Shown: piece after piece, positions 2,457 to 60,005 of the stretch
How positions within the stretch are numbered: the stretch's first letter is position 1
How the letters are laid out: each line of letters starts with the position of its first letter
Assembly: GCA_017547755.1 (NCBI GenBank)
Contig: JAFYOX010000107.1
Coordinates: forward strand, 22,040-86,039
From: Clostridia bacterium
GTDB taxonomy: Bacteria > Bacillota > Clostridia > Oscillospirales > CAG-272
DNA length: 64,000 bases
Reading direction: 5' to 3'
Program-made: the position numbers and the translations under genes
Notes under the pieces: model-generated
Database searches by the model: none
Told to the model about the DNA's origin: nothing
What the model saw: the letters and a program-made list of their open reading frames with translations, nothing else

Positions 2457-2534
2457 GGGGAAAACTTTTTGAAAAAAGTTTTCCCCTTGAGACTTCCGGC
2501 GGAAGTCTCGTCCCTTCTTCAAAAACTTTTATAC
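2457..2534 (+). repeat. Dispersed intergenic palindromic repeat, copy A (core + inserted GC hairpin + tail)
   Basis: Core GGGGAAAACTTTTTGAAAAAAGTTTTCCCC at 2457-2486. Perfect hairpin GAGACTTCC-GGC-GGAAGTCTC at 2489-2509. Tail CCCTTCTTCAAAAACTTTTATAC ends at 2534. Confidence 0.85.
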
Positions 2535-2603
2535 TGGATGAGATAAATTACATTTATTATACCATAAAAAAGCGGGAAAAGGGAGAGTTTTTGAAATATT
2601 CTT

Positions 2604-3605
2604 TTATACGGGTTTGCAGAGGTCGAGAACGTCGTTCAGGTCGGCGGTCGCAAGACGGAGGATCGCGTCGCCTGCGCTGTGGTAGATGCGGAGTTTCCCT
2701 TCGTCATCCACAAGTGCCGCGCACGGGAAGAGAGCGTTTGTACGCATGCCTTCTTCCACTTCCCAGTATCCTTCCGGAGCCATCAGCGGCTCGTCCATTT
2801 TTCCGATGACCTTCCACGGCTTTTCGAGGTCGAGCAGGCACGCGCCGATGGTGTAGCGCTTTTTCCATGCCGCTTCCCAGCCGTTTTTGCCGCGCGACGG
2901 GTCGAAGTCGACGGCGTGATAGATCATGAGCCAGCCGCGGTCGGTCTTGATCGGCGGTGCGCCGGGACCGATCTTGTTGTTGGCGAACGGAACGTCTTCC
3001 ACACCGAGGACGAAACGGGATCTGCCCCAGTAGATGCAGTCCGGGGATTCGGACAGCCAGATGTCGAAGCGGTCGCCGCCGCGGGAGTATACGGGCATCG
3101 GACGTTCGAGACGGACGAACTGACCGTTGATTTTTTCAGGGAAGAGGACCATGTTCCGGTTGTCCGGAACAACAACGGACAGCGGCTCGTAGTTGTGGAA
3201 ATCGTCCGTGACGGCAAAACCGCCGCAGACGCCGTGGCGCGTGTCGATGGCGAAGCTGACGTAGAAGCGTCCGTCCATCGGTGTGATGCGCGGGTCGTAC
3301 AGACGGACGACTTCGCCGGGTTCGAACGTGTCGCCGAACCATTTGCCGTCGAGGACCGGTTCGGGTTCGACGTTCCAATGGATGCCGTCGTCACTGAACG
3401 CCAGACCGATGTTGGTGCCGTCGAGACGCTGTTCCTCATAGGAGCCGTAGTCGTTGCGGAACAGCATGATGTATCTGCCTTCGTGACGCACGATACCGGC
3501 GTTGAAGGTCAGTGCTGACGGATAGGGCACGTCGTGCCGGCTGAGGATGGTGTCCGGATACCGTGTGATGACCGGACTGGTCTTAAGATTACCGATAAGT
3601 TCCAT
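2604..3605 (-). CDS. GH130 family glycoside phosphorylase/hydrolase (beta-mannoside-type, DUF377 fold)
   Basis: 333-aa ORF. Five-bladed propeller GH130-type motifs (FNAGIV..EGRYIMLFR, YDPRITPMDGRFYVSF, IGPGAPPI, GWLMIYHAV). SD GGGAGA lies inside the upstream gene. Confidence 0.8.
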   Translation of the reverse strand: MELIGNLKTSPVITRYPDTILSRHDVPYPSALTFNAGIVRHEGRYIMLFRNDYGSYEEQRLDGTNIGLAFSDDGIHWNVEPEPVLDGKWFGDTFEPGEVVRLYDPRITPMDGRFYVSFAIDTRHGVCGGFAVTDDFHNYEPLSVVVPDNRNMVLFPEKINGQFVRLERPMPVYSRGGDRFDIWLSESPDCIYWGRSRFVLGVEDVPFANNKIGPGAPPIKTDRGWLMIYHAVDFDPSRGKNGWEAAWKKRYTIGACLLDLEKPWKVIGKMDEPLMAPEGYWEVEEGMRTNALFPCAALVDDEGKLRIYHSAGDAILRLATADLNDVLDLCKPV

Positions 3606-3606
3606 G

Positions 3607-4608
3607 TCAGTCTCCCATGTATTCTTTCGCCGTGTCGATCAGGGCGATGAGGTTTTCGTACGGGACGTCGGGCATGATCTCCTGCGACGGTGCAGTGATA
3701 TAACCGCCGTTTTTGCTCATCAGCTCGACGACGCGGCGGGTTTCACGGCGGACTTCGTCCGGAGTTCCGTTCGGAAGGATCCGCTGGGTGCTGATGCCTC
3801 CGAAATACGTGAGTTTATGCCCGTATTTTTCCTTGAGTTCGGCGAGATCCATGCATTCCGGCTGAACGGGATTGAGACCGTCCACGCCGATCTCGCACAG
3901 ATCGGGAAGGATCGCGTCGATCTTGCCGCAGGAATGGACGAAGACGTCCTTCTTCATGCTGTGGACAAGTTCGTATTCCATGCGTTCGCCTTCGCGGATG
4001 AGATTTGTCCACGACTGCGGCGACATCAGCAGACCGCGCTGGGTACCCCAGTCGGAGCCGAGAAGAACGCCGTCGATGTCGGGCGAAACGAGGAAGTTTT
4101 CGAGCATGACCATATTTTTGCGGATGATCATATTGAGAAGGCGCGCGGCGAATTCCGGTTCCCCGGCGATGTCGGCGAGGAAGTTTTCAAGACCGCGTGC
4201 GAAATAGGCTTTTTCGAAGTGGCTGCCCCAGATGGTGACCAGCTGATAGGCGTCGAAATTTTCGCGGAGGTATTTCCAGTGATTGAAGGAATCGCCGTAG
4301 GAACCGTAGCCGGCGGTGTACGGCAGAAGCGTCGGAGCTTCTTCGGTCGAATAATCTTCCGGGAAGGAATGCCATCCCCACCACGGCGCGTTGACGTAGA
4401 GCATGCAGTTGCCGATGGCGAGGGAGTAGGCTTCCACGAGATTCAGACGTCCGGCTTCGAATTCTTTTTTTACGTTGGCATCGCCGTAGCGTTCGATCAG
4501 CTTCGGACCGTAGAGGTCGTTGCTTTCGGGCGCGAGGATGATGGTGTAGGGCACTCTGCCGGTATTTTCGTGCGCGAGCGCCTGTTTGAGAATTTCACGT
4601 CTTGTCAT
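3607..4608 (-). CDS. Uroporphyrinogen decarboxylase (URO-D)-like family protein, function unknown in this context
   Basis: 333-aa ORF. The C-terminal half (VFVHSCGKI..LPDLCEIGVDGLNPVQPECMDL..GGIST) resembles the URO-D/MtaA TIM-barrel family. There is a 1-nt gap to the GH130 gene. Confidence 0.65.
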   Translation of the reverse strand: MTRREILKQALAHENTGRVPYTIILAPESNDLYGPKLIERYGDANVKKEFEAGRLNLVEAYSLAIGNCMLYVNAPWWGWHSFPEDYSTEEAPTLLPYTAGYGSYGDSFNHWKYLRENFDAYQLVTIWGSHFEKAYFARGLENFLADIAGEPEFAARLLNMIIRKNMVMLENFLVSPDIDGVLLGSDWGTQRGLLMSPQSWTNLIREGERMEYELVHSMKKDVFVHSCGKIDAILPDLCEIGVDGLNPVQPECMDLAELKEKYGHKLTYFGGISTQRILPNGTPDEVRRETRRVVELMSKNGGYITAPSQEIMPDVPYENLIALIDTAKEYMGD

Positions 4609-4617
4609 GGGGACTCC

Positions 4618-9315: not shown

Positions 9316-9328
9316 CACAGCAAAAGGT

Positions 9329-9362
9329 GGGAGCCGGCAGGAAAATGCCGGTTCCCGTTTTG
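9329..9362 (+). terminator. Rho-independent terminator after the HAD gene
   Basis: 11-bp stem GGGAGCCGGCA/TGCCGGTTCCC followed by a GTTTTGATTATTTTTT tract. Confidence 0.7.
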
Positions 9363-10938: not shown

Positions 10939-12303
10939 ATGACAGAAAAACATGAACTGCGCAGTCTGCCGATCATTTTCATCAAAGGTTTGATCGTGGT
11001 CGCTCTCGCTTTTCTGATGGCATTCGGACTCAACAGCGCGATGCAGTCCTTCCTGGACGATGAAGTTGCGGTCGTACAGGCGGCAGCGGAACGTGCGGCG
11101 AAGATCGAGGCGGCACTGGCGGCTGCCGAAAACGAAGCGCAGGCGAAGCGTCTTGCGGCGGAACTGGCGGTCAAGGAAGCGGAGCAGTACGAAGAATTCT
11201 ATCAGAAGTACAAGACCCGTCACTGCTACCACTACTACGGTCAGTTCTACGAAATGTTCGAAAATATGTATAATGCCGATACCATTTTCATCGGTACGTC
11301 CCATACGGCGCACGGCGTCAATCCGCTGTATATGGAAGAAGTCATGCCCGAAAAATCGTGGTTCAACTTCGCCCTGAACGGCTCCAACCCCCAGTACTAT
11401 CTCGACTGGTGGAAGGTTTTCCTGGAATCCGGTTATCCGATCCCGGAAACCATCGTCTACTGTGTCGACTGGTTCATGTGCGACGACGGCTGGCTCTGGC
11501 GCCGCATCGACTTTGACACCAACCCCGACTGCCCGGTCGATATCATGCGCAAGATCAAGACCGCGGAAAAGCGCAAGGAAGCTGTGGAAAATCACAACGC
11601 CAAGGTGGAAGGCGGAACCGTGACGACGGAAACCGAAACGGTTGAAAAGACGGAAACGCCCGAAAAGATCAACTGGTTTGACATCGACGAAGCGACCACC
11701 TACCTGTTCAGCCGGATTCCGATCATCTATTCCCGTGACCGTATCCCGGAAATGATCGAATACTACCGAAACGGCGGCACGTTCGAAACCGAGGAAGAGG
11801 AAGTCGACCTCGACGCCCTTCTTGCCGCGACCGATGACGAAGCACCGCTTCCGGAAGTTCCGGTTTATAAACACGAACATCAGGCGGACCAGGACAACAA
11901 CATCACCAGCTCCTACTACAAGGGATATATTCCGTGGGAACGCGGCTACAACGGCGGCACCGTAGCACAGATGTGCAACGACCGCGAATCCCAGTGGCAG
12001 GCGTTTGAAAAGCTTCTCGACATCTTCAAGGAAAACGACATCCATGTCGTCTTCGTGGAAGTTCCGGAATACGTCAACGGACGCCGCGAAAACAAGATGG
12101 AAAAAAACAATGACCGCATCGAAGAAATTGCCGAAAAGTATGGCATTACCTTCTACAACTACAACGAAGAACTGTACGGCGAAATCAACGAAAGCCCGAC
12201 CAACTTCTCCGACTGGGGTCACATGAACACCAAGGGAAGCACCGCCTTCTCCAAGCTCCTCGCACAGGACCTGAAAGAATATTTTGATAATCTGGAAGAT
12301 TGA
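10939..12303 (+). CDS. MBOAT-associated extracytoplasmic SGNH/DltD-AlgX-like protein (N-terminal TM + Ala/Glu coiled coil)
   Basis: 454 aa. One N-terminal TM segment, an AAAERAAKIEAALAAAENEAQAKRLAAELAVKEAEQ coil, IFIGTSHTAHG (block I-like), and a C-terminal SDWGHMNTKG (D..H block). Lies immediately downstream of the MBOAT gene. Confidence 0.6.
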   Translation: MTEKHELRSLPIIFIKGLIVVALAFLMAFGLNSAMQSFLDDEVAVVQAAAERAAKIEAALAAAENEAQAKRLAAELAVKEAEQYEEFYQKYKTRHCYHYYGQFYEMFENMYNADTIFIGTSHTAHGVNPLYMEEVMPEKSWFNFALNGSNPQYYLDWWKVFLESGYPIPETIVYCVDWFMCDDGWLWRRIDFDTNPDCPVDIMRKIKTAEKRKEAVENHNAKVEGGTVTTETETVEKTETPEKINWFDIDEATTYLFSRIPIIYSRDRIPEMIEYYRNGGTFETEEEEVDLDALLAATDDEAPLPEVPVYKHEHQADQDNNITSSYYKGYIPWERGYNGGTVAQMCNDRESQWQAFEKLLDIFKENDIHVVFVEVPEYVNGRRENKMEKNNDRIEEIAEKYGITFYNYNEELYGEINESPTNFSDWGHMNTKGSTAFSKLLAQDLKEYFDNLED

Positions 12304-12311
12304 TTTTTCTC

Positions 12312-12401
12312 GGGGAAACCTTTTTTGAAAAAAGGTTTCCCCGAACCCTTTCCAAAAAACTTTATACTATGAAAAAAGACAAAGTAAGTGCAAATTTGAA
12401 G
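12312..12401 (+). repeat. Dispersed palindromic repeat, copy B (core + tail + distal box)
   Basis: Core GGGGAAACCTTTTTTGAAAAAAGGTTTCCCC at 12312-12342. Tail GAACCCTTTCCAAAAAACTTTATAC at 12343-12367. Distal box GACAAAGTAAGTGCAAATTTGAAG at 12378-12401. Confidence 0.9.
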
Positions 12402-12437
12402 AAATAAAACGGCTGTATAGTTTACAGAATTTTATAA

Positions 12438-12552
12438 CTTCAAATCTGCACAAACTTTGTCTGTCATTTTTGTTTGAATGTTTTTGAAAAGGGGGGCAGC
12501 TCCGATTTGCGGAGCAAATCGGGGAAAAACTTTTTTCAAAAAGTTTTTCCCC
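12438..12552 (-). repeat. Dispersed palindromic repeat, copy C (inverted relative to B; has an inserted GC hairpin)
   Basis: Distal box at 12438-12461 (reverse complement GACAAAGTTTGTGCAGATTTGAAG). Reversed tail GTTTTTGAAAAGGGG. Hairpin GCTCCG-ATTTG-CGGAGC at 12499-12515. Core GGGGAAAAACTTTTTTCAAAAAGTTTTTCCCC at 12521-12552. Confidence 0.9.
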
Positions 12553-12564
12553 GGAAAACTCCAT

Positions 12565-13449
12565 TCAGCAAAGACCGGCGAGCTTGTCGGCGGGTGCTTC
12601 TTCGGGCGTGAAGCCGCTGTAGCCGAGCTGGGGCATTGCTTCGATTGCCGCGCGGTCTTCGGCGGAGATTTCGAAATCGAAGACTTCAGCGTTCTGGGTG
12701 ATGCGTTCCGCGTTTGTGGACTTCGGAAGGGGAAGGATGCCGTAGTCGAGGGAGAGACGGATGCAGAGCTGAGCAACGGACTTGTTGTACTTTGCCGCGA
12801 TCTTTGCAAGGGTTTCATCCTTCAGAACGGTGCCGCTTCCGAGCGGGCTCCATGCTTCCACGAGGATGCCCTTCTTCTGGTTGTAGCGGATGTTGTCGAG
12901 CTGCATATAGCCGGGGTGGAATTCGAGCTGGTTGACCATCGGCATGATTTCCGCGGTCTTTGCGAGCGCTTCGATCTGCTTTTCTTCGTAGTTGCTGACG
13001 CCGATCGCTCGGAGCTTGCCGGCCTTGTACATCGCTTCAAAGCCGCGCCACGTGTCCGCGTTGATTTCCGCCCATGCCGGATTGCTCAGTTCCACGCACG
13101 GCCAGTGAACGAGGTAGAGGTCGATGTAGTCGAGCCCGAGGTTTTTCAGGGATTCGTCCACCGCTTCGACGGTCTTCTGATAACCGCGGAAGGTGACCCA
13201 GTGCTTGGTCGTTACGAAAATATCTTCGCGCTTTACGCCGGACGCACGGATACCGTCGCCGACGCCGATTTCGTTGGCGTAGCCCCATGCGGTGTCCACG
13301 TGACGGTAGCCGAGATCGATTGCGGTCTTTACGAGATCCGCAGTCACATCGTTCGGAGTCTGCCAGGTACCGTAGCCGATCGCGGGGATCTTCACGCCGT
13401 TCGACAGGGTGTAGCAGTCGGTCAGAGAGGTAGGAAGATAAATGCTCAT
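12565..13449 (-). CDS. Aldo/keto reductase (2,5-diketo-D-gluconate reductase-like)
   Basis: 294 aa. GYGTWQ, GYRHVDTA, LDYIDLYLVHWP and IPKS-type motifs. Confidence 0.9.
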   Translation of the reverse strand: MSIYLPTSLTDCYTLSNGVKIPAIGYGTWQTPNDVTADLVKTAIDLGYRHVDTAWGYANEIGVGDGIRASGVKREDIFVTTKHWVTFRGYQKTVEAVDESLKNLGLDYIDLYLVHWPCVELSNPAWAEINADTWRGFEAMYKAGKLRAIGVSNYEEKQIEALAKTAEIMPMVNQLEFHPGYMQLDNIRYNQKKGILVEAWSPLGSGTVLKDETLAKIAAKYNKSVAQLCIRLSLDYGILPLPKSTNAERITQNAEVFDFEISAEDRAAIEAMPQLGYSGFTPEEAPADKLAGLC

Positions 13450-13607
13450 AATAGGAATTTCCTTTCTGGATGTTCAGTTTTGTTAAAGTAAGTTTACCAT
13501 ATACACACGCGAATTTCAATGCAATTTCCGGAAAATAAAAATTTCTGAGGAAATTTCCGAACCGTTTTCGTTTTTCCGACACTATATGGATGAAAGGGGG
13601 ATGCAGT

Positions 13608-15005
13608 ATGAACCGATCCGAACAGATTCTTGAAACGTATATGCAGCCGGTGTTTTATTTCGCCCTGCGGAAAACTTCCAGCCGGGAAGAGGCGGAAGAT
13701 TTTACCCATAATGTGATGCTCGACGTTCTCACCGCGCTCGGCAGAGGCTTCACGCCGGACAATGAGCGCGCGTGGGTGTGGAAAATTGCACGGAATCACT
13801 ACGCAAAATGGGCGGCACGGCAGACGAATGTGCGGCAGACGCTCGACGCGGACGAGATCCGCGAGACCGTATCCGACGGTTCCCTTGTGGAAGACGGACT
13901 TCTTCGGGAAGAGGAGACCGCACTTCTCTACCGGGAACTCGCGCTTCTGTCCCGGGATTACCGCACCATTGTCTGCGAATACTACTTCAAAAACCGGACG
14001 CTGGCGGATATTGCAGAGTCGCTCGGACTTCCCCACGGAACCGTAAAACGAAAAATTTCCGAATGCCGGAAACATCTGAAGGAGGCAATCAACATGGCAA
14101 GAACTTACGGAAAACGCAGTTTCGCACCCGAACTCATCGAATTCGGACAGAACTGGGATCCCACGACCGGAAAGGACGGAAGACGCTACGTCGAGCACCT
14201 GCTGGCGCAGAACATCCTGCTCGAAGCGTACGACAACCCCAGTACGGCGGAAGACCTGTGTCTCGCGCTCGGCATTGCGATGCCGTACATGGAGGACGAG
14301 CTGAATTTCCTCATGGAAGGCGAACTGCTGACCTGTGAAAGCGGGAAGTATCGCACGAATATCGTGATCCTGTCGAAGGAAGTACAGGAAAACATTTACG
14401 CGCTTGCGCTGGAATATGTGGACGAAATGGCGGAACTCGTGAAAAAAGCCGTCACGGAAGTTTATGAAAAGCCCGAATGTCCGAAAAAATTGTCGTTTGA
14501 CGACATGAAACTTACGCTCGTCGAACGTGTGATGAACGTCCGCGTGAAGGAAGATGTGAAAAATTTAAGCGGACCTCACATGATCAGACATAAAGACGGC
14601 AGCAAATGGGCACTCGCCGGATTCGAAAAGACGGATGTCAGTCAGGTGTGGCTGGAAGTCTGGGGATGGGATTATACGCAGATCATTATCCTTGGCAACC
14701 GTGGGAACTGGGATGAATTCGAATTCGACTGGTCGAAGGTTCCTGTTTTTGCAGAAGACAGTCTGGAAAACCTGTTTGTCACCACGCACAGTTTAGCGGT
14801 TGACGACCTGTACGACGACTACCTCGCCCGCCGTCACGCGCTTCTCATGGCGGATATCCCGACGTATCTTCACGGCAAAACGACCATCATGAGCAACGTC
14901 GATTTCCGCAAACTGGTGATCGACCGCCTGATCGAAACCGGCTGGATCACGCTTGCGCCCGACATGAACAAATCCGAAATGGGCGTGTGGAAGTACGCGG
15001 AATAA
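13608..15005 (+). CDS. Sigma-70/ECF-like sigma factor with a ~290-aa C-terminal extension (paralog of 60086..61627)
   Basis: Region 2 (EAEDFTHNVMLDVL, WVWKIARNHYAKW) and region 4 HTH (RTLADIAESLGLPHGTVKRKISECRKHLK), followed by a long soluble extension. The ATG at 13608 has an AAAGGGGGA SD. The track start at 13590 lacks one. Confidence 0.8.
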   Translation: MNRSEQILETYMQPVFYFALRKTSSREEAEDFTHNVMLDVLTALGRGFTPDNERAWVWKIARNHYAKWAARQTNVRQTLDADEIRETVSDGSLVEDGLLREEETALLYRELALLSRDYRTIVCEYYFKNRTLADIAESLGLPHGTVKRKISECRKHLKEAINMARTYGKRSFAPELIEFGQNWDPTTGKDGRRYVEHLLAQNILLEAYDNPSTAEDLCLALGIAMPYMEDELNFLMEGELLTCESGKYRTNIVILSKEVQENIYALALEYVDEMAELVKKAVTEVYEKPECPKKLSFDDMKLTLVERVMNVRVKEDVKNLSGPHMIRHKDGSKWALAGFEKTDVSQVWLEVWGWDYTQIIILGNRGNWDEFEFDWSKVPVFAEDSLENLFVTTHSLAVDDLYDDYLARRHALLMADIPTYLHGKTTIMSNVDFRKLVIDRLIETGWITLAPDMNKSEMGVWKYAE

Positions 15006-16599: not shown

Positions 16600-16651
16600 G
16601 GGGGAACTTTTTGAAAAAAGTCGGAGCCAAATTCCGCAATAACTTTCAGTC
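16600..16651 (+). repeat. Dispersed palindromic repeat, copy D (degenerate, right arm replaced by a small hairpin)
   Basis: GGGGGAACTTTTTGAAAAAAGT, then CGGA-GCCAAAT-TCCG, then CAATAACTTTCAGTC. Confidence 0.6.
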
Positions 16652-20536: not shown

Positions 20537-21040
20537 TCAGTCGCCGTCCGTGGAAACAGGCTTCGGAGCGATGCCGCGTTCGAGGCAGTTTTCGGCATCA
20601 CGGCGCATGAGGGAAGACATGATTTCCGAACATTCGGCGATTTTTACCTTATCTTCCTCGGAGAATCCGGAAAGCGTCGAGAGAATTTCGTGAACGATTT
20701 CCCCGAGCATTTTTTCGAGGTGCTGGACCCCGCGGTCCGTGATTTCAATATAGACCTTCCGGCGGTTTTCCTTATTATGAGACCGGACAACATACTGCTT
20801 TTCTTCGAGATCGTTGACTAGCTTGGTGAGCTGCTGTTTCGTGATCCCCATTTCGTTCGCAAACTCCGTCATCGTTACCGGGCAGTTCCGGTACGCACGG
20901 AGTGCGTACAGCGTCGAAAATCCGTGCGAGTGCATCCGGTACTCATTCGCGTCCACCAGATGCCGCCGCATCATCGCATAATAATCAACCATAAAATCAA
21001 GAAATTTCCGCGCAATCGCTAAATCGTTTGCCTCTGTCAC
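20537..21040 (-). CDS. MarR family transcriptional regulator
   Basis: 167 aa. Winged-helix pattern FSTLYALRAY..VTMTEFANEMGITKQQLTKLVNDLEEKQYVVRSHNKENRRKVYIEITDRG. GTG start with a GGAGGG SD. Confidence 0.85.
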   Translation of the reverse strand: MTEANDLAIARKFLDFMVDYYAMMRRHLVDANEYRMHSHGFSTLYALRAYRNCPVTMTEFANEMGITKQQLTKLVNDLEEKQYVVRSHNKENRRKVYIEITDRGVQHLEKMLGEIVHEILSTLSGFSEEDKVKIAECSEIMSSLMRRDAENCLERGIAPKPVSTDGD

Positions 21041-21106
21041 TTACAATTCCCTCCGTTTCCTCCGCGTCTTCATTCGCCACGGCTGTCAAAATTCTTCATT
21101 TCTTTA

Positions 21107-21135
21107 ATTATATCATACTTTTCGGAAACTGTCAA
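21107..21135 (-). promoter_or_regulatory. Candidate consensus sigma-70 promoter for marR
   Basis: Minus strand: TTGACA, 17-nt spacer, TATAAT. Confidence 0.55.
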
Positions 21136-21283
21136 TCAGATAAACTATAATCATGTGTGAATTGTTTATACATGGAAAGGGTATGTTTTGTGCGGATTTT
21201 TTAAAAAGCGACCGTCTCCCCATTCCGCCACCTTTGCACAAACTTCCCCAAGCAGGAAAAAACAAATACAAAAATTCTTTCTA

Positions 21284-21312
21284 TTGCAAAATCAGATAGA
21301 GCGAGTTATAAT
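21284..21312 (+). promoter_or_regulatory. Candidate sigma-70 promoter for the 21365/21497 transcript
   Basis: TTGCAA, 17-nt spacer, TATAAT. Confidence 0.5.
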
Positions 21313-21364
21313 AGAGATACAGCAACCGGTGCTGAAATCCTCGAAGAAAAGGAGGTAATGTGAG

Positions 21365-21397
21365 ATGACAATTGCTATGGAGGTGGCTGTACTCTGA
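21365..21397 (+). CDS. Candidate 10-codon leader ORF (MTIAMEVAVL)
   Basis: AAGGAGG SD 9 nt upstream. Lies about 45 nt downstream of the predicted -10 and upstream of hairpin 21455..21481. Confidence 0.3.
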   Translation: MTIAMEVAVL

Positions 21398-21454
21398 CGG
21401 GATCCGGAGACGGAGACGTCGGTGTACCCACTTTGAGACAACGGGATAGGTGCT

Positions 21455-21481
21455 CATGGCAGGGGACTGCCGTGGGCTTTT
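21455..21481 (+). promoter_or_regulatory. Terminator-like hairpin in the 5' leader of the CD3324-like gene
   Basis: CATGGCAG-GGGA-CTGCCGTG (8 bp, one G-U pair) followed by GGCTTTTCCCG. Ends 16 nt before the ATG at 21497, which has no visible SD. Confidence 0.35.
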
Positions 21482-21496
21482 CCCGCGTTCTGACGA

Positions 21497-21814
21497 ATGG
21501 AGTCGTGCATTACGAAAGGCGGTACACCTATAGGCTACATAAATGCGGAGGAAGTTCTGCCGAAGGAACTTCTGGCACAGATCAGATTGTATATTGAGGG
21601 CGAAGCGATCTATATTCCGAAGGAAACGACGGAGAAGCGGAAGTCGTGGGGCGGCAAGACCGGAACCCGCGCCGAGTACGACCGCAGGAACCGCGCGATC
21701 GCTGAAGAATACCGCGGCGGACGGTCTGTGAACGACCTCGCCGAGAAATACTGTCTCTGCCCGGACAGCATCCGGAAGATTCTCCGGAACCGTATGGAGG
21801 AGGAAACGACATGA
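21497..21814 (+). CDS. CD3324/Mor-like small HTH protein
   Basis: 105 aa. YINAEEVLPKELLAQIRLYIEGEAIYIP plus a C-terminal SVNDLAEKYCLCPDSIRKIL HTH. Confidence 0.6.
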   Translation: MESCITKGGTPIGYINAEEVLPKELLAQIRLYIEGEAIYIPKETTEKRKSWGGKTGTRAEYDRRNRAIAEEYRGGRSVNDLAEKYCLCPDSIRKILRNRMEEETT

Positions 21815-22064: not shown

Positions 22065-22093
22065 AAAAAGGACTGTCCGAACAGTCCTTTTTT
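22065..22093. terminator. Bidirectional terminator
   Basis: AAAAAGGACTGT-CCGA-ACAGTCCTTTTTT. Confidence 0.8.
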
Positions 22094-23746: not shown

Positions 23747-23763
23747 TATATGTGTATATTTTC

Positions 23764-23821
23764 CCGGGGGAAACTTTTTTGAAAAAAGTTTCCCCCGGAC
23801 CCCTTTCAAAAAACTTCAATC
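23764..23821 (+). repeat. Dispersed palindromic repeat, copy E (between ruvA and ruvB)
   Basis: Core CCGGGGGAAACTTTTTTGAAAAAAGTTTCCCCCGG and tail ACCCCTTTCAAAAAACTTCAATC. Confidence 0.9.
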
Positions 23822-23851
23822 TGTTATGGGTATTAAGTTGGGTTCAAATCG

Positions 23852-27573: not shown

Positions 27574-27609
27574 CGTGGGAAAAACTTTTTGAAGAAAGTT
27601 TTTCCCACG
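27574..27609. repeat. Dispersed palindromic repeat, copy F (core only)
   Basis: CGTGGGAAAAACTTTTTGAAGAAAGTTTTTCCCACG, 6 nt past the symporter stop. Confidence 0.75.
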
Positions 27610-27615
27610 AAAACA

Positions 27616-29190: not shown

Positions 29191-29220
29191 GATGAGTCTC
29201 CTTTGCTGGGATGAAGATAT

Positions 29221-29255
29221 AAAAAAGCTGCACGCCGTGATTTGGCGTGCAGCTT
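29221..29255 (-). terminator. Strong intrinsic terminator inside the symporter 5' leader (attenuator candidate)
   Basis: Minus strand: AAGCUGCACGCC-AAAUCAC-GGCGUGCAGCUU followed by a U-run. Ends about 30 nt before the symporter ATG. Confidence 0.75.
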
Positions 29256-29317
29256 ATGGACGGAATGTATATGGAAACGATCCGGTTCCGTTTTCGTAAT
29301 TGCATCACAAATCACTA

Positions 29318-29374
29318 TTACCTTTGGAAAAAGTAATAGTAATAATATGCAAATACGAAATTACGGTTTGCCAT
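29318..29374 (-). CDS. Candidate 18-codon Tyr/Phe-rich leader peptide MANRNFVFAYYYYYFFQR
   Basis: Verified codon by codon on the minus strand. AAAGGAG SD 9 nt upstream. Five consecutive Tyr codons plus 4 Phe. Ends in in-frame TAA-TAG-TGA. Confidence 0.55.
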   Translation of the reverse strand: MANRNFVFAYYYYYFFQR

Positions 29375-29910: not shown

Positions 29911-29916
29911 AAAACA

Positions 29917-35144: not shown

Positions 35145-35250
35145 CCTCAGATCTGCACCCGACATTGTCAATAAAATAGTATAAAAGTTTTTGAAAAGGG
35201 GTCCGGGGAGAAACTTTTTTCAAAAAGTTTCTCCCCGGAAACTCCATTTT
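35145..35250 (-). repeat. Dispersed palindromic repeat, copy G (distal box + tail + core, reverse orientation)
   Basis: Distal box at 35145-35169 (reverse complement GACAATGTCGGGTGCAGATCTGAGG). Reversed tail GTATAAAAGTTTTTGAAAAGGGGTC. Core CGGGGAGAAACTTTTTTCAAAAAGTTTCTCCCCG at 35204-35237. Flank GAAACTCCATTTT is shared with copy C. Confidence 0.9.
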
Positions 35251-35268
35251 ATAAAGGAGGACAGAACG

Positions 35269-36143: not shown

Positions 36144-36201
36144 TGGGAACCCTTTTTGCAAAAAAAGGGTTCCCAAAACTCTTTTCCGGAAACTTTATGC
36201 C
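36144..36201 (+). repeat. Dispersed palindromic repeat, copy H (variant core + tail)
   Basis: TGGGAACCCTTTTTGCAAAAAAAGGGTTCCCA plus AAACTCTTTTCCGGAAACTTTATGCC. Confidence 0.75.
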
Positions 36202-36254
36202 GGAAAAAACAGAATTAGAAATAAAAATAGTTCACATATATTTACAATCACCTA

Positions 36255-36283
36255 TTGACAAACAAAGATAAATATGGTATGAT
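36255..36283 (+). promoter_or_regulatory. Consensus sigma-70 promoter for the fab operon
   Basis: TTGACA, 17-nt spacer, TATGAT with an extended -10 TG. About 150-nt AT-rich leader follows. Confidence 0.55.
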
Positions 36284-36435
36284 AGTTCCCGGTATGAAAA
36301 GTAAGCGTATATTTACAGTAAACTTGCGGTTCGTACAAAGGGCATCATGCCTTTTCTTTACCGATGAACATTAGATATTAAAATAATAATCTATTATTTA
36401 AGGTATGCATAAGATAACGATAAAAGGAGGACGGA

Positions 36436-37681: not shown

Positions 37682-38622
37682 TCCGGACATCCCTTTGTGA
37701 TCTCTGCGGGATCCGGTATCCCATTTTTCAGGGCGGCATGGCGCACGTGTCCGACGCACGTCTTGCCGCTGCCGTGACAAATGCGGGCGGACTCGGTATT
37801 ATCTCGGCAATGAGCCGAGACGGTGCCTATGTCCGGGAACAGATCCGTCTGGCGAGAACCCTCACGGCCGGTCCTGTTGGTGTGAACGTCATGCTGATGA
37901 GCCCGTACGTCGGAGAGGTCGCCGCCGTGATCGCCGAAGAAAAAGCGGAAGTGGTCACGACCGGTGCCGGAGATCCGTCCGCGTATGTGAATCTGTGGAA
38001 AACTGCGGGATGCCGTGTCATTCCCGTGGTTCCGTCTGCGGCACTGGCCAAACGCATGGAACGTGCGGGCGCCGATTCCGTGATCGCCGAAGGCGGCGAA
38101 TCCGGCGGACATATCGGCGAACTTGCTACGATGCCCCTTGTTCCGCAGGTCACCGACGCGGTTTCGATCCCCGTTCTCGCCGCCGGCGGGATCGGTGACG
38201 GACGCGGCGTTGCGGCGGCATTCATGCTCGGTGCATCCGGCGTTCAGCTCGGCACACGTTTTCTCGCGGCAGAGGAATGCGGCATCCATCCGCATTACAA
38301 GGAACTTGTGCTGAAAGCATCCGATACGTCCACCATCGTCACCGGACGCCGTCTCGGTCATCCGGTGCGCAGTCTCAAAACGCCGTATTCCCGCAATTAC
38401 GCGAAGCTGGAATACACCGATATTTCCGCAGAAGAGCTGGAAGCCCTCGGTGTCGGTTCTCTTCGTAAAGCGGCGGTGGACGGCGACGAAAAGGAAGGCT
38501 GCTACATCGCCGGTCAGATCGCCGGCATGGTGAACCGCGTGCAGACTGCCGCGGAAATCATTGAGGAAATCATGGCGGAAACCGAACAGGTTCTGAGAAA
38601 CGCCGTGAATTTTCTTGTATAA
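37678..38622 (+). CDS. fabK: Enoyl-ACP reductase II (FMN-dependent, nitronate monooxygenase family)
   Basis: 314 aa. YPIFQGGMAHV. GTG start overlapping the acpP stop, with a GGAGG SD. Confidence 0.9.
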   Translation: MIRTSLCDLCGIRYPIFQGGMAHVSDARLAAAVTNAGGLGIISAMSRDGAYVREQIRLARTLTAGPVGVNVMLMSPYVGEVAAVIAEEKAEVVTTGAGDPSAYVNLWKTAGCRVIPVVPSAALAKRMERAGADSVIAEGGESGGHIGELATMPLVPQVTDAVSIPVLAAGGIGDGRGVAAAFMLGASGVQLGTRFLAAEECGIHPHYKELVLKASDTSTIVTGRRLGHPVRSLKTPYSRNYAKLEYTDISAEELEALGVGSLRKAAVDGDEKEGCYIAGQIAGMVNRVQTAAEIIEEIMAETEQVLRNAVNFLV

Positions 38623-38658
38623 AGTTTTTTGAAAGGGGTTCGGAAAAACCTTTTCCGG
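38617..38658 (-). repeat. Dispersed palindromic repeat, copy I (tail + collapsed core; overlaps the fabK stop)
   Basis: GTATAAAGTTTTTTGAAAGGGGTTC followed by CGGAAAA-ACC-TTTTCCG. The fabK TAA (38620-22) lies inside the tail box. Confidence 0.7.
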
Positions 38659-38679
38659 TTTTTCACGAGATACTTCGTT

Positions 38680-49020: not shown

Positions 49021-49049
49021 AAAAAGGACTCCGGAAGAAGTCCTTTTTT
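49021..49049 (-). terminator. Terminator downstream of the GH20 gene
   Basis: AAGGACT-(8 nt)-AGTCCTT flanked by A/T runs. Confidence 0.65.
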
Positions 49050-55537: not shown

Positions 55538-57436
55538 ATGAAACATAAAGTTGTAGACATCGTATGTCTTTCTCTGGCTGCTGCCATGTTCGGCAGCGTT
55601 GCGCTTCTCAATCTTGTTCAGCCGAACCGTCCGACGGAATCGGCGATGGAACAGCGCAAACTTGCGGAGATGCCGGCGTTTTCGCTGAAATCTCTTGCGG
55701 ACGGTTCGTTCTTCTCCGGAACCTCCGTCTTTGTGTCCGACACCTTCCTGTACCGCGACCAGCTGGTCGGACTTTCCAAGAAAATGGATACGCTCCGCGG
55801 CATCGATTACTCCGTCGGCGGCGAAGAGGACAGTTTTGTTCTTCTTGATAACGCGACCGGTGCGTCTGCCGGAGACGATGAAGCGGCAAACGCGGCTGCG
55901 GATCAGATCGCGGCGGCGTTCGACAGCCTTCTGAACCAGACGCAGACGGAATCCCCTGCGGAAGAAACTCCGGCGGTTCCGGAACTCACTGCGGAAGAAG
56001 AAATTGCTGATGAAGTGATCACGGAAGAAGCGGTGGTTCCTGCAGGCGAAATCACCGAAGAACCCGAACCGGAACCGACACCCGAGCCGGAAATTCCGGC
56101 GGAAGCGGTCGTCGATATCCCCGATGAAAATCCTGCGGAGAAAACTCCTGAGGCTCCCGCACCGGAAGTTCCCGCAGAACCCGCGGAACCCGCAGAACCG
56201 GAAGTTCCTGCAGAACCCGAAGCTCCCGCGGAACCGGTGGTTACCGCGATCCATCTGACGAAAAACAATCTCAAGCTGACCGTCGGCAGCGGTGCCGTGG
56301 TCAATGCGACGGTGGATTCCAACGGACATTCCGGAGCGAAGGTACGCTGGTCCATTTCCGATAAAAATGTTGCGACCATTGCAATGAATCCGAACGGCGG
56401 CATCGACGTCAAGGCAGTTGCGGAAGGCACCTGCACGCTGACCTGTTCCGCCGGAGAAGGGGATGCGAAGATCCAGCAGAAATGCGAGATCACGGTCAGC
56501 GCGGTCATTGCCCAGACGCCCGCAGAAGATGCCGGTCTGACGGCGGACTTCCTGCCGGACGGTCTGTTCATCTACGGTGACGGCGTTTACACGCAGGCAT
56601 ATTATTCCGCGACCAACTCGCAGAACTACGCCCAGACAGCGGCATATTACAAGACCCTGTTCGGCGCGGATACCCGCGTGAGCATGGTCATTGCACCGGT
56701 TTCCGCGATGGTGATCGACAATCCGACGGTCACGTCGAAGATCCCGGATCAGAAGGACATTCTCGACAAGATGGCGGCGTTCGTGGATCCCTCGGTCAAT
56801 TTCGTTGACGCATACACGGAAATGTACGAACACCGCGACGAATACCTCTTCTTCAAGAGCGACCACCACTGGACGGCGCGCGGCGCGTACTACGCGTACT
56901 CCGCGTTTGCGAAGTCCATCGGTCTCGAACCGACGCCTCTGGACGGCTTTGACTACAATGTCATGAACGACAGCTATCACGGCAGTATGTACAACTACAC
57001 GTATGACGCCCGTGTAAAGAATTTTGTGGACACCATCGAAGCATTCTTCCCGCGCAAGGCGCATACGATGACGATATCCGCGATCGGCGGTGCGACGTAC
57101 AATTACAACACCTCCATCGTCAGCACGAACAAGACGTACGTGACCTTCATCGCCGGAGACAACCCGTACACGGTCATCAACGTTCCGGAAAATCCGCAGG
57201 ACTTCAACGTACTGGTTCTGAAGGACTCCTTCGGCAACGCGTTTGTCCCGTTCCTGTGCGAACATTACGGCAACATCATCGTTGTGGACACCCGCCATTC
57301 CGGCATGAACGTCTATGAACAGCTGAAGGATTACGGTCTGTCCGACATTATTTTCGTGAACAACATTCAGGCGGCGAACTCGGCTTCGTGGTACAGTATG
57401 TACATGAAGGCGGTCGGCGTGAACATCGGCGGATGA
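55538..57436 (+). CDS. DHHW family protein with N-terminal TM, Pro/Glu-rich linker and Big_2 Ig-like domain
   Basis: 632 aa. FFKSDHHWTARGAYYAY motif and VLKDSFGNAF. Big_2-like segment ITAIHLTKNNLKLTVGSGAVVNATV...CTLTCSA. Confidence 0.8.
   Translation: MKHKVVDIVCLSLAAAMFGSVALLNLVQPNRPTESAMEQRKLAEMPAFSLKSLADGSFFSGTSVFVSDTFLYRDQLVGLSKKMDTLRGIDYSVGGEEDSFVLLDNATGASAGDDEAANAAADQIAAAFDSLLNQTQTESPAEETPAVPELTAEEEIADEVITEEAVVPAGEITEEPEPEPTPEPEIPAEAVVDIPDENPAEKTPEAPAPEVPAEPAEPAEPEVPAEPEAPAEPVVTAIHLTKNNLKLTVGSGAVVNATVDSNGHSGAKVRWSISDKNVATIAMNPNGGIDVKAVAEGTCTLTCSAGEGDAKIQQKCEITVSAVIAQTPAEDAGLTADFLPDGLFIYGDGVYTQAYYSATNSQNYAQTAAYYKTLFGADTRVSMVIAPVSAMVIDNPTVTSKIPDQKDILDKMAAFVDPSVNFVDAYTEMYEHRDEYLFFKSDHHWTARGAYYAYSAFAKSIGLEPTPLDGFDYNVMNDSYHGSMYNYTYDARVKNFVDTIEAFFPRKAHTMTISAIGGATYNYNTSIVSTNKTYVTFIAGDNPYTVINVPENPQDFNVLVLKDSFGNAFVPFLCEHYGNIIVVDTRHSGMNVYEQLKDYGLSDIIFVNNIQAANSASWYSMYMKAVGVNIGG
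55949..56236 (+). repeat. Coding low-complexity Pro/Glu/Ala-rich linker (imperfect tandem PAEP/PEPE units)
   Basis: Translates to ..EEPEPEPTPEPEIPAE..APAPEVPAEPAEPAEPEVPAEPEAPAEP inside the DHHW gene. Confidence 0.8.
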
Positions 57437-58311: not shown

Positions 58312-58329
58312 GGAAAAATGGAGATTATT

Positions 58330-58420
58330 GGGGAAACCTTTTTTTCGAAAAAGGTTTCCCCAAACCCTTTCCAAAAAACTTCAGACAAAAAAGAATGATA
58401 AAGTTTGTGCAGATTTTTCG
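58330..58420 (+). repeat. Dispersed palindromic repeat, copy J (core + tail + distal box)
   Basis: Core GGGGAAACCTTTTTTTCGAAAAAGGTTTCCCC at 58330-58361. Tail AAACCCTTTCCAAAAAACTTCAGAC ends at 58386. Distal box GATAAAGTTTGTGCAGATTTTTCG at 58397-58420. Confidence 0.9.
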
Positions 58421-58437
58421 TAAAAGGAGATATAATT

Positions 58438-59355
58438 ATGTTTGTTGTGGACTCGCATTGTGACAGCATCGCGATGGTTGGAAATCAGCCGCTCGTGAAT
58501 CCGTACAATTACAGTAAGAAATATCAGCAGCTGCAGATGGTGGCGATGTTTTGCGCGCATCCGAAGGATACAAAGCAGGATTCGTGGGACCGTGCGCAGC
58601 ATTACATCAATGTTTTCAATCAGGCGATGATCGATGAAGCGGACGTTGTTCTTCCCGTACGGACGTACGCGGACATCGAAGCGGCATTTGCTGCCGGAAA
58701 GCACGCCGCGCTTCTGACCGTGGAAGGCGGTCTCGGCTTCAATACCGTGGAAAATTTCCGTGCGGTATGGGAAGCCGGCGTCCGTGTGTTCGGCGTGACC
58801 TGGCTGAGCAACGATATGGCAAAGAGCAACCGTGACAACGGTGCGGAAGATACGGGACTTTCCGATCTCGGACGTGAAATCGTCGCGGAAGGCAACCGTC
58901 TCGGCATGATTTTTGACGTATCCCACATTTCCGACAAGAGCTTCTGGGATCTCGCGGAAATCGCGGAAAAGCCGATCATTGCGACGCATTCGAATTTCCG
59001 TACGCTCTGCGGACACACGCGCAACCTGACCGACGACATGGCACGTCAGATCGTGAAGGGCGACGGCATGATCGGTCTGAACCTCTGCACGGGATTCGTT
59101 CATGACGATCCGGAACAGCAGACGATCGAAAATTTCTTCCGTCATCTGGATTACTGCCTCGAAAACTTCGGCGAAGATCACATCGGCTTCGGCGGCGACA
59201 TCGACGGTGTTGGCGGAGAATATCCGAAGCCGGTCAACGAAGGCTCGTCCATCCACGATCAGCTCATCGAATTCATGGAAAAGCATTATTCCGCGTCCGT
59301 GATCGAAAAGGTCGCGGGTGTGAATTACCTGAACTTCCTGAAGAAGTATCTGTGA
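58438..59355 (+). CDS. Membrane dipeptidase (peptidase M19 family)
   Basis: 305 aa. VVDSHCD, DVSHISDKSF and ATHSN. The ATG at 58438 follows AAAAGGAG. Confidence 0.85.
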   Translation: MFVVDSHCDSIAMVGNQPLVNPYNYSKKYQQLQMVAMFCAHPKDTKQDSWDRAQHYINVFNQAMIDEADVVLPVRTYADIEAAFAAGKHAALLTVEGGLGFNTVENFRAVWEAGVRVFGVTWLSNDMAKSNRDNGAEDTGLSDLGREIVAEGNRLGMIFDVSHISDKSFWDLAEIAEKPIIATHSNFRTLCGHTRNLTDDMARQIVKGDGMIGLNLCTGFVHDDPEQQTIENFFRHLDYCLENFGEDHIGFGGDIDGVGGEYPKPVNEGSSIHDQLIEFMEKHYSASVIEKVAGVNYLNFLKKYL

Positions 59356-59368
59356 GCGGGAGGATGTC

Positions 59369-59929
59369 TTGAATATTGCCGGACATCTGAAAACCGTCAC
59401 CCGTCACCGGATGCTGGTGCTGAAGCACTGCGTTCTCTGCGGGATCCCGTTCCGGGGACTGGTGCATGACCTGTCGAAATACTCGCCGGCGGAATTTCTC
59501 GCCGGAGCGAAGTATTACGAACAGGGCGGACGCAGTCCGAATGAGCATGAACGTGAAGTGAAGGGATATTCCTCCGCGTGGATGCACCATAAGGGACGCA
59601 ATCCGCACCATTACGAATACTGGTACGACGTCAGTCCGAAATCCCGGACGTACGAACCGGTGCCGATGCCGCTCGAATATCTGAAAGAGAGCTTCTGCGA
59701 TCGGGTTGCCGCGAGCAAGATCTACAAAGGGGATGCGTACACGGATTCCGTCGCGTACGACTATTTCAAAAGCCGTCCGTCGGAAAAGCTGATGCACCCG
59801 TGCACGGCGTGCATTCTCGAATCGTGGCTGAAAATGCTTGCCGAGGAAGGCGAAGAGAAGACCTTCGCCCATATCCGGAAGATCGACGAAATCAAATACT
59901 GCTCGGACTGTAAAAAACGCACAGACTGA
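59369..59929 (+). CDS. DUF5662-like (HD-related) protein
   Basis: 186 aa with a TTG start. HDLSKYSP..HH..NPHHYEYW His-rich pattern. Confidence 0.55.
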   Translation: MNIAGHLKTVTRHRMLVLKHCVLCGIPFRGLVHDLSKYSPAEFLAGAKYYEQGGRSPNEHEREVKGYSSAWMHHKGRNPHHYEYWYDVSPKSRTYEPVPMPLEYLKESFCDRVAASKIYKGDAYTDSVAYDYFKSRPSEKLMHPCTACILESWLKMLAEEGEEKTFAHIRKIDEIKYCSDCKKRTD

Positions 59930-59951
59930 TGTCCGTGCGGAAAGACTCGCG

Positions 59952-60005
59952 GGAGAATCTTTGAAAGAGGTTCTCCCCGATATTTTTTTGAGATTTTTTC
60001 GGAAA
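59952..60005 (+). repeat. Possible divergent copy K of the dispersed repeat
   Basis: GGGAGAATCTTTGAAAGAGGTTCTCCCC, then GATATTTTTTTGAGATTTTTTCGGAAAA, which resembles the distal part of copy J. Confidence 0.4.

Follow-up and report, generated by a model that had tools for sequence, protein, structure and literature searches.

A dispersed palindromic repeat with a mirror-ordered tail in a clostridial genome: an unfamiliar sequence family of the BoxC kind

What is the palindrome that recurs between the genes of a gut-type Clostridia bacterium (Oscillospirales, CAG-272), and what keeps it there? The question arose from a 64,000-nt stretch of contig JAFYOX010000107.1 (positions 22,040 to 86,039; the window in what follows), in which an initial annotation, made from the letters alone, had described a modular repeat at eleven intergenic sites. 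Our analysis indicated that the family is almost certainly a genuine dispersed repeat, and that it had no description as a sequence family in the libraries searched. The unit is about 60 nt long and consists of a 17-bp AT-centred palindrome with a GC-rich base, one further base, and a G-free tail in mirror order. It is an unfamiliar sequence family of the known BoxC or 'intrastrand-triplex' kind.

A 23-nt junction pattern, CCCNNNNCCCTTTYMAAAAAMYT, which straddles the boundary between palindrome and tail, matched five sites in the window at two or fewer mismatches, compared with 0.02 expected. A repeat search of the window grouped seven palindromes (at 2455, 12310, 12520, 23764, 27575, 35204 and 58329) as one family with mutual inverted matches, and an nhmmer profile was built from 115 copies of other genomes and then run on the window. 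The literal consensus of the initial annotation fitted only two sites at three or fewer mismatches, because the lengths of the homopolymer runs vary. For detailed parsing, 87 well-preserved copies were divided block by block into an arm of 15-17 nt, a loop of 1-8 nt, the second arm, a 3-nt linker and a 14-nt mirror block. Read 5' to 3', the stem starts with two variable paired bases and continues with GGGG-A(3-5)-C(1-2)-T(5-6), the loop, the exact complement and the two partner bases, each arm (GGGGAAAA-C-TTTTTT) having a purine half and then a pyrimidine half. The spacer base between palindrome and tail is usually A, and the tail reads C(3-4)-T(3-4)-C(1-2)-A(5-6)-C-TT-(T)ATAC, typically CCCC-TTT-C-AAAAAA-CTT-TATAC. 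Conservation reached about 7 nt past the tail A-run and about 11 nt ahead of the stem, and the left flank of the unit was only weakly conserved and C-poor (A/T-rich).

The pairing of the stem was preserved through sequence change. In an alignment of 81 sequences, 92.8% of the cells in the 17-bp hairpin were paired, compared with 42-76% in slid controls, and none of 500 shuffles reached so high a value. Eleven of the 17 pairs were altered on both sides (142 cells), and at least 14 distinct perfect arm sequences occurred among the copies. The two base pairs outside the G-run were paired in 87 and 78 of the 87 parsed copies, against 64.6 and 35.5 in shuffles. RNAalifold on a MAFFT alignment returned a weak, register-shifted consensus and was superseded by the explicit 17-bp structure and the block parsing.

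The tail had been taken as a one-sided mark that gives each copy an orientation. It is indeed one-sided, but it is more than a mark, since it mirrors the 3' arm and co-varies with the stem. Read outward from the 3-nt linker, it repeats the 3' arm in mirror order with C in place of G. The C-run lengths of stem and tail were concordant in 85 of the 87 copies (1 and 1 in 58 copies, 2 and 2 in 27, 2 and 1 in the other two). The arm (G, A and C runs) exceeded the C+T+C part of the tail by exactly one base in 82 of 87 copies, a rule that spanned four length classes (8/7, 9/8, 10/9 and 11/10) and six lineages, and the T-run of the stem equalled the A-run of the tail in 64. We also scored each tail as a third strand, allowing C.G-C and T.A-T triads on the purine half of the stem and A.A-T or T.A-T on the other half. 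The fit of tails to their own stems was 0.882, while swapped tails gave 0.851 +/- 0.003, and none of 500 permutations was as good. With the junction C excepted, all tail bases formed canonical triads in 67 of the 87 copies. Within a single genome, RGIG1778, at least six arm variants were each accompanied by a corresponding tail. Because the tail complements the 5' arm in parallel orientation, a continuous Watson-Crick helix cannot account for this coupling. A Watson-Crick helix between the tail and either the hairpin or the left flank was likewise rejected, as the tail is parallel, the flank is weakly conserved, and RNAfold gave only short, copy-specific outer helices. A mirror repeat beside a duplex has a classical meaning, namely a third strand that folds back.

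The copies in the window are as follows; the gene map by which their intergenic status was judged was drawn from codon usage.

Copy A, plus strand: hairpin and tail; palindrome 2457-2486, GC-rich insert 2489-2509, tail 2512-2534 (profile match 2455-2534, nhmmer E=3e-7); between the stop of a GH130 gene (2604, minus strand) and the start of an EF-G-like gene (2434, minus strand).
Copies B and C, plus strand: foldback doublet of about 245 bp, 12310-12552, between convergent genes.
Copy B, plus strand: hairpin 12310-12344, tail 12346-12367, distal box 12378-12401 (profile match 12309-12367).
Centre of the doublet: 12402-12437.
Copy C, the inverted half of the doublet: distal box 12438-12461, tail 12472-12495, GC-rich insert 12496-12520, hairpin 12521-12552 (profile match 12557-12474).
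Copy D, plus strand: decayed relic, 16600-16651, in a divergent intergenic region, found by the repeat search of the window.
Copy E, plus strand: hairpin 23764-23798, tail 23800-23821 (profile match 23763-23822, E=3e-16); between ruvA and ruvB, both on the minus strand.
Copy F, strand undefined: palindrome only, 27574-27609 (profile match 27575-27610); a family-consensus hairpin without tail.
Copy G, minus strand: distal-box-like sequence 35148-35169, tail 35179-35201, hairpin 35203-35238 (profile match 35240-35180, E=2.5e-17); upstream of gene 35263-36123.
Copy H, plus strand: variant hairpin TGGGAACCC...GGGTTCCCA at 36144-36175, degenerate tail 36179-36200 (profile match 36145-36200, E=7e-5); past the stop of gene 35263-36123 and ahead of the fab promoter.
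Copy I, minus strand: tail 38617-38638, degenerate hairpin 38641-38666 (profile match 38656-38616, E=8e-8); inside the fab operon, between an upstream gene (Pfam NMO, called fabK) and the next gene (Pfam Acyl_transf_1, called fabD).
Copy J, plus strand: hairpin 58328-58363, tail 58365-58386, core of the distal box 58397-58416 (profile match 58326-58386, E=1e-13); between two plus-strand genes.
Site K, plus strand: ordinary intrinsic-terminator-like hairpin, 59951-59977, followed by CGATATTTTT; not a family member.

The eleven sites therefore reduce to eight copies with hairpin and tail (A, B, C, E, G, H, I and J), one with the hairpin only (F) and one relic (D). The family itself is real, while K is a terminator and, like D, gave no significant match in the profile search of the window. 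In D, the 5' arm, the loop and the end of the tail survive, and CGGAGCCAAATTCCG has taken the place of the 3' arm and the tail's beginning. The palindrome of F is 97% complementary to that of C; on the minus strand its hairpin is followed by TTCTTTGTCC and is located past the stop of an SSF transporter gene. H and I are divergent; the changes in the arms of H are compensatory, and the stem of I is degenerate. Copy A is oriented such that a transcript from the flanking minus-strand genes would contain the tail first and the hairpin second. The description of the repeat as dispersed, modular and non-coding, with copies in both orientations, held in the window as well as in other genomes. Its placement outside coding sequence applied to every copy, except that copy I runs with its final 6 nt into the end of the upstream NMO (fabK) gene, stop codon included.

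A distal box (GACAAAGTTTGTGCAGATTTGAAG) had been assigned to B, C, G and J. It was solid in B and C, J shared a 17-nt core, and G had only a looser version. In Oscillospiraceae-type genomes, the distal box together with a small hairpin at the centre rounds the unit out to a foldback of about 245 bp, of which B and C are an example. As DNA, this unit folded into a single long hairpin at -72 kcal/mol (z=-10.7; ViennaRNA fold, in which only the hairpin was modelled). The whole unit was 83-86% identical to two loci in other genomes (L033 and L034), the flanks of which were unrelated. The GC-rich inserts described for A, C and D were confirmed in A (2489-2509) and C (12496-12520), and D has a related piece. 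Self-complementary GC-rich inserts were found exactly at the boundary of hairpin and tail in A, in C and in one copy of a related genome (L203, see below); that of A (GAGACTTCC...GGAAGTCTC) is unlike that of C in sequence. Since the inserts are self-complementary, hairpin and tail stay adjacent only in the folded single strand.

One genome per GTDB species was scanned with the junction pattern, and loci were named by record title. At least 117 stretches matched, which extended the family to other genomes, as the initial annotation had proposed to check. About 90% of them carried the full palindrome directly upstream, although the pattern demanded only three C of the palindrome. The hosts among the matches listed included many gut and rumen metagenome-assembled genomes (MAGs) of Clostridia, Oscillospiraceae or 'Eubacteriales', two MAGs of Thermodesulfobacteriota, several Desulfovibrionaceae, a groundwater deltaproteobacterium with at least eight copies, a verrucomicrobial MAG (three copies), Candidatus Magnetomicrobium of the Nitrospirota (three copies), and single MAGs of Dissulfuribacterales, Desulfobacterales and Desulfomonilales. 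For several of these hosts, mis-binning is excluded by contigs of 100-400 kb. The window and 106 genome loci from the scan together yielded 212 hairpin-and-tail copies. Beyond the copies that had seeded the retrieval, the fetched loci contained one further copy per about 7.8 kb; the window has nine copies per 64 kb, and the 17 kb of flanking contig contributed one partial copy. The earlier estimate of hundreds of copies per genome is consistent with this and plausible, on the basis of locus density and not of a whole-genome count. No match to the B+C unit was found in PLSDB plasmids or INPHARED phages by BLAST, and the junction pattern gave four chance matches in IMG/VR viral contigs, none with the palindrome. 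Phage carriage of the module is thus not supported.

The copies were often arranged in pairs. Among the 212, neighbouring copies formed 37 tails-inward doublets, six single palindromes with a tail on each side and three tandem arrangements, and the tails-inward doublets hold about a third of all copies. In three lineages, the doublets and the lineage-specific outer and central sequences make up foldbacks that measure 165-245 bp and have terminal inverted repeats, resembling MITEs, miniature transposable elements bounded by inverted repeats. In the groundwater genome, the element is about 165 bp long and reads CTATAGT...[hairpin][tail]-8 nt-[tail'][hairpin']...ACTATAG, while in Thermodesulfobacteriota the module lies within a foldback of about 225 bp (L017, L029, L054 and L115). 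About 60 nt past the tail, the Thermodesulfobacteriota composite also has a hypervariable central hairpin with largely complementary arms and a constant CTTCC...GGAAG apex, as would follow if copying used one arm as the template of the other.

Comparison with close relatives indicated that individual sites are filled or empty. Since a metagenome scan with FabH gave one short close relative and otherwise many sequences at 50% identity or less, it was replaced by a protein search with contig look-ups, and four syntenic relatives (L201 to L204) were fetched through their FabH homologues (91, 89, 86 and 82% identity). Site G was filled in the window and in L203 and empty, with a 42-nt gap, in the closer relatives L201 and L202. 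A tails-inward doublet of about 215 nt lay between the fabG-like and fabF-like genes of L203 only, the other four genomes having 23-24 nt there. L203 also had a 495-nt insert between the accD-like and accA-like genes, which ended in inverted tail, GC hairpin and hairpin. Other sites persisted. Site E, between ruvA and ruvB, was common to the window and L201, with an identical tail and a stem that differed by two fully compensatory double substitutions. Site I, in the fab operon, was filled in all five genomes, with stems that differ and still pair. At site H, L201 and L202 had orthologous hairpins, and L203 had an ordinary terminator in that place. The filled and empty orthologous sites and the preserved hairpins imply that copies are gained and lost quickly and that some persist with their hairpin.

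The relatives also extended an observation on a second, small GC-rich self-complementary module. It occurs in the window at 12496-12520 (C), 16622-16636 (D) and possibly 2489-2509 (A), in L201 at 12240-12265 and in L210 at 4300-4350. Most instances share CGGAG...CTCCG, and D has a related CGGAGC...TCCG piece. In L201 and L202, the GC-rich hairpin takes the place of the palindrome apex, and in L210, just outside the window, it takes the place of the entire palindrome. It is possibly an independent palindromic element nested in the repeat, or else a variable arm that the repeat tolerates.

The surroundings of the copies were examined for orientation and for mobility genes. Among 159 classified copies, 51 had a gene running into the hairpin and the next gene running away from the tail (++), 46 had the reverse arrangement (--), 32 lay between divergent genes and 30 between convergent genes. 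This shows no clear bias in flanking-gene orientation. The initial annotation had also asked for target-site duplications, and no duplication could be defined. Its statement that there is no transposase nearby was borne out by the window proteins; no transposase, integrase or RAYT-like gene was found in the window, in its 17-kb extensions or in the loci of the four relatives, and no transposase recurred among 2809 open reading frames (ORFs) near copies. The recurrent neighbour families were housekeeping only (ABC ATPase, solute-binding protein, XRE regulators and sigma factors). Several spurious long ORFs start in or cross the repeat (at 23809, 12478, 35247, 35191, 38629 and 58374), with translations such as MEFPGRNFLKKVSPRTPFQKLL, and gene callers may extend N-termini or invent small proteins at copies. 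About ten genes start 12-27 nt past a copy that is arranged tail first and hairpin second, with no recognisable Shine-Dalgarno sequence between (ruvB at 23746, the EF-G-like gene at 2434, the fabD-like gene at about 38680, and others at L016, L067, L091, L108 and elsewhere); the L201 counterpart of the fabD-like gene also lacks one after copy I. The complement of the tail, GAAAGGGG, is Shine-Dalgarno-like, yet it lies on the far side of the hairpin.

How the family relates to known repeats was considered next. Repeats of the BoxC type, also called PIT, are reportedly the subject of a paper by Hoyne and Maher in 2000. The BoxC repeat of E. coli was re-described as a 'potential intrastrand triplex' (PIT) and then as TMECO, with the pattern CCCTCNCCC-N3-6-GGGNGAGGG-N3-GGGNGAGGG, in which an arm, a loop and the complementary arm are followed by a 3-nt loop and a mirror-ordered third block (Holder et al. 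2015, PMC4666352). Such elements are always intergenic, show no orientation bias, are unlinked to mobility genes and also form palindromic doublets; they occur in more than 260 proteobacterial genomes and vary among close strains, and the same source cites earlier work that found them in Synechocystis and H. influenzae (PMC4666352). The module shares this order of blocks, with a 3-nt linker and a third block that mirrors the second arm. It shares the intergenic location, the absence of orientation bias and of a linked transposase, integrase, phage or plasmid, the tens or more of copies per genome, the inverted doublets, the variable presence in close relatives and the occurrence in several distant lineages. 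The sequences, however, are unrelated, and the TMECO pattern had no match in the window. The TMECO blocks are 9-nt homopurine or homopyrimidine runs (a pure purine motif), whereas the arms of the module are 15-17 nt long and turn from purine to pyrimidine at mid-length. A third strand, which would fall one base short of the arm, would thus have to change both its motif and its partner strand at the C/CC junction. In the published scheme of triplex classes, the module would nest class III with class II on one strand and, on the other, class I with class IV (PMC4666352). Unlike BoxC/PIT/TMECO, it also sits in larger MITE-like foldbacks, its hosts are anaerobic Bacillota, Desulfobacterota, Verrucomicrobiota and Nitrospirota, and its possible triplex is predicted from sequence. 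The initial annotation had recognised no known family here. The sequence was indeed absent from Rfam and from the literature searched, but the architecture has this precedent (PMC4666352).

Other repeat classes share some features and lack others. REP, BIME and REPIN elements, which RAYT (TnpA-REP) transposases mobilise, are likewise short (20-40 bp), extragenic, non-coding palindromes of high copy number in both orientations, with frequent inverted doublets, variants within one genome and compensatory hairpin changes. However, the GTAG or CGTC tag at the foot of the REP stem was present in none of the 87 copies, the module has a long perfect palindrome with an AT-rich apex and a one-sided 22-nt mirror tail, and REP sequences are usually species-specific, whereas the module is nearly the same across phyla. 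Bacterial MITEs such as Correia/NEMIS, RUP, ERIC, Chunjie and Nezha have been reviewed (PMC10969869, PMC3184786). The foldbacks of 165-245 bp (B+C and those of the groundwater genome and the Thermodesulfobacteriota) resemble them as non-coding units with terminal inverted repeats, and the polymorphism at orthologous sites, operons included (site G, the fabG-fabF doublet, the accD-accA insert), is also MITE-like. In contrast to MITEs, there was no consistent target-site duplication, nothing among the 2809 ORFs near copies pointed to a cognate insertion sequence with matching ends, the majority of copies are single half-units without terminal inverted repeats, and the conserved part is internal or subterminal within otherwise unrelated composites. 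Like an intrinsic terminator, the module has a stable hairpin, GC-rich at its base and often placed a few bases after a stop codon, but mostly a U-tract is lacking here, antisense and divergent contexts are as frequent, and both the primary sequence and the tail are conserved. Mirror repeats of the H-DNA type are matched insofar as the tail and the 3' arm make up a mirror repeat about a 3-nt centre, the arrangement that a fold-back triplex demands of a sequence. The module differs in having no homopurine or homopyrimidine tract and in the overlap of mirror and inverted repeats, with one arm shared by hairpin or cruciform and triplex. The general assignment as REP/MITE-like was sustained.

Taken together, these features make it probable, on sequence grounds, that the family is a non-autonomous element of the REP/BoxC/MITE type, the propagation or retention of which would require a folded single strand, the hairpin with its matching tail, copied in trans by a putative enzyme. 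The gain and loss of copies at orthologous sites points to a non-autonomous element that is mobile or recombinogenic, and as no enzyme is encoded nearby, any mobilisation would have to act in trans. The active form would be the folded single strand, most likely single-stranded DNA exposed during replication or transposition, in which the hairpin may form and the tail would have to match the stem. The simplest physical reading would place the tail as a third strand in the major groove. The G-rich strand could then form G.G-C, A.A-T and then T.A-T triads, and the C-rich strand C+.G-C, T.A-T and then A.A-T triads. Effects on host transcripts, from a very stable hairpin past stop codons or in operons, would be side effects. 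A triplex fold would most simply explain both the mirror coupling and the presence of self-folding inserts at the linker, and we propose it tentatively, judging it on balance doubtful. We regard with the same caution, as possible and rather unlikely, the proposal that the module is a naturally selected alternate-strand intrastrand triplex, in which the tail would pair with the purine half of one arm and then cross to that of the other.

Several observations weigh against a propagated, folded single strand or against its triplex form. The copies are kin, and ectopic gene conversion could carry stem and tail jointly, so that the coupling statistics are not phylogenetically independent. Stem variants with a G inside the A-run (GGGGAGAAC) are not followed by the tail, the junction C makes a non-canonical triad, the position of the skipped base varies, and four successive C+.G-C triads are unfavourable at neutral pH. 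The single strand of TMECO formed a stable triplex in vitro only, and in vivo footprinting was negative (PMC4666352). No autonomous element or RAYT-like gene was present in about 1 Mb of scattered loci, and the junctions at fabG-fabF and site G had no clear target-site duplication; identical 3-bp flanks occurred in only two of six groundwater copies. Finally, the long retention of E and I inside operons and the terminator at H in a relative hint at a host-level role.

Such a role could be that of a host-selected RNA hairpin, acting as a terminator that is factor-dependent or has no U-tract, as a stabiliser at the 3' or 5' end of mRNA or as a processing site, as with E. coli REP, the tail being accessory. 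This is consistent with hairpins that often start 3-30 nt past a stop codon, with the very stable RNA fold of the copies (-25 to -35 kcal/mol, z -3.0 to -6.4), with the exchange of palindrome and ordinary terminator at site H, and with the pairing kept by E and I in the ruvAB and fab operons. The initial annotation had stated that no U-tract follows the stem, which was true of B, C, E, G and J, while A, F, H and I passed a lenient terminator rule on one strand. Directly after the stem comes N-N-A-CCCC on one strand and, on the other, varied C-poor sequence such as GAGAAAA. The lack of a T-run in most copies and the unbiased orientation, with 32 of the 159 classified copies between divergent genes, speak against termination as the designed function and bear out the earlier verdict that the palindrome is not a canonical terminator. 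The genome, moreover, uses ordinary hairpin and T-run terminators elsewhere; in the window these are K, 9324-9361, 22065-22092, 49021-49048 and 61636-61661. (The bidirectional terminators at 22065-22092 and 49021-49048, 27 kb apart, are nearly identical, AAAAAGGACT...AGTCCTTTTT.) A host-selected RNA hairpin would leave unexplained the doublets, the spread across phyla and the mirror tail with its coupling to the stem, and the PIT/BoxC elements tested in experiments showed no promoter or terminator activity (PMC4666352). It is the leading rival, and it seemed to us unlikely as the main explanation. Nor was a promoter apparent: a sigma-70 promoter composed of tail and distal box was rejected because on inspection hexamers and spacing are not conserved and the sites at A, G and J are weak 9-of-12 matches, and a sigma-54 or extracytoplasmic-function (ECF) promoter was rejected by eye.

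The initial annotation had offered a protein-binding site or a structured RNA as alternatives, and both were disfavoured, since the stem sequence varies with pairing kept and the orientation relative to transcription is unbiased. An array of duplex binding sites for a dimeric nucleoid-associated protein, recombinase, global regulator or the like would fit the perfect dyad symmetry, the high intergenic copy number and the conserved blocks of G-run, A-run and T-run. We considered it improbable. The perfect arm sequences are altered on both sides of the pairs, so that pairing is preserved and a recognition sequence is not; the tail, as a mirror repeat, offers no equivalent half-site to a duplex-binding dimer; hairpin inserts of 21-25 nt would disrupt the spacing of a duplex site; and the phyla involved are unlikely to share one specific regulator. 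Still less probable was a structured non-coding or cis-regulatory RNA, for example a translational element that uses the Shine-Dalgarno-like GAAAGGGG and is transcribed from its own or a neighbouring promoter. The covariation of the stem and the genes without an obvious Shine-Dalgarno sequence 12-27 nt past tail-then-hairpin copies argue for it, and GAAAGGGG could presumably pair with the 3' end of 16S rRNA. However, all four gene contexts were occupied without orientation bias and many copies lie between convergent genes, no conserved promoter was seen, conservation stops about 7 nt from the tail, and Rfam gave no match. The last result agreed with the earlier statement that no Rfam family is recognised: there were no matches at gathering thresholds, and the relaxed search returned only spurious sub-threshold hits to miRNA and SmY models (E up to 5). 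A full-text literature search on exact tail strings also found no match, and the REP/RAYT and MITE literature did not cover the family. Mimicry of Shine-Dalgarno or anti-Shine-Dalgarno sequences by GAAAGGGG and CCCCTTTC was suggestive, but the spacing is too long and the orientation unbiased, and it was kept as a minor rival. Chance similarity of low-complexity sequence, or an artefact of assembly or binning, might be suspected in homopolymer-rich sequence known from metagenome assemblies only. This was refuted to near certainty by the zero matches expected in shuffles, by the identical sequence of the window region in three independent assemblies, by the contigs of 100-400 kb in different phyla and by the orthologous copies in four related genomes.

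Some further features of the window were noted. The gene downstream of copy A (2-2434, minus strand; complete in L209 at 11172-13811) encodes an 879-aa protein with the EF-G/TetM-like GTPase domains GTP_EFTU, EFG_III, EFG_IV and EFG_C and a C-terminal NYN_YacP nuclease domain, and it starts 22 nt past the palindrome with no obvious Shine-Dalgarno sequence. The control region of the fab operon (36200-36430), common to L201-L204, contains a TTGACA-17-TATGAT promoter with a TG extension (36255-36283), with repeated TAGTTCACATATATTTAC-like boxes on either side that resemble an operator at which a fatty-acid regulator would act. Seven tandem 9-nt units (ACCGGAAGT/TCCCGCAGA-like) at 56161-56250, in gene 55586-57436 (Pfam DHHW, Big_2 and ALGX), probably encode a repetitive peptide linker. 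Two long non-coding gaps, 20993-21586 and 29191-29968, each have terminator-like hairpins and a perfect TTGACA-17-TATAAT promoter-like site with a TG extension (21135-21107 and 29436-29408, minus strand). Neither gap had a match at Rfam gathering scores, and the relaxed search gave only a far-sub-threshold match to a microRNA model at 29904-29956.

REP, BoxC and MITE repeats shape genome stability and operon expression and are mostly known from Proteobacteria and a few pathogens. The present family would be the first dispersed palindromic repeat described for uncultured gut Clostridia of the Oscillospirales type, and its recurrence in sulfate-reducer, verrucomicrobial and Nitrospirota lineages implies a module far more widespread than any REP family. 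If the triplex reading is true, the three-way covariation (four length classes, six lineages) would provide, for the first time, comparative evidence that a triplex-compatible fold is selected in bacteria. Selection could then operate by way of whatever machinery copies the element, or by way of a host process, replication pausing and recombination being examples, and a deep family of such elements would extend across phyla. The covariation of stem and tail also provides a sequence-based handle on whether PIT repeats use a three-stranded fold in vivo, a fold that was not detectable there for E. coli BoxC (PMC4666352). Because spurious ORFs run through it, the module is a likely cause of assembly breaks and annotation errors. 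For the organisms themselves, it is a marker of intergenic insertion and deletion and a source of very stable hairpins in operons such as ruvAB and fab.

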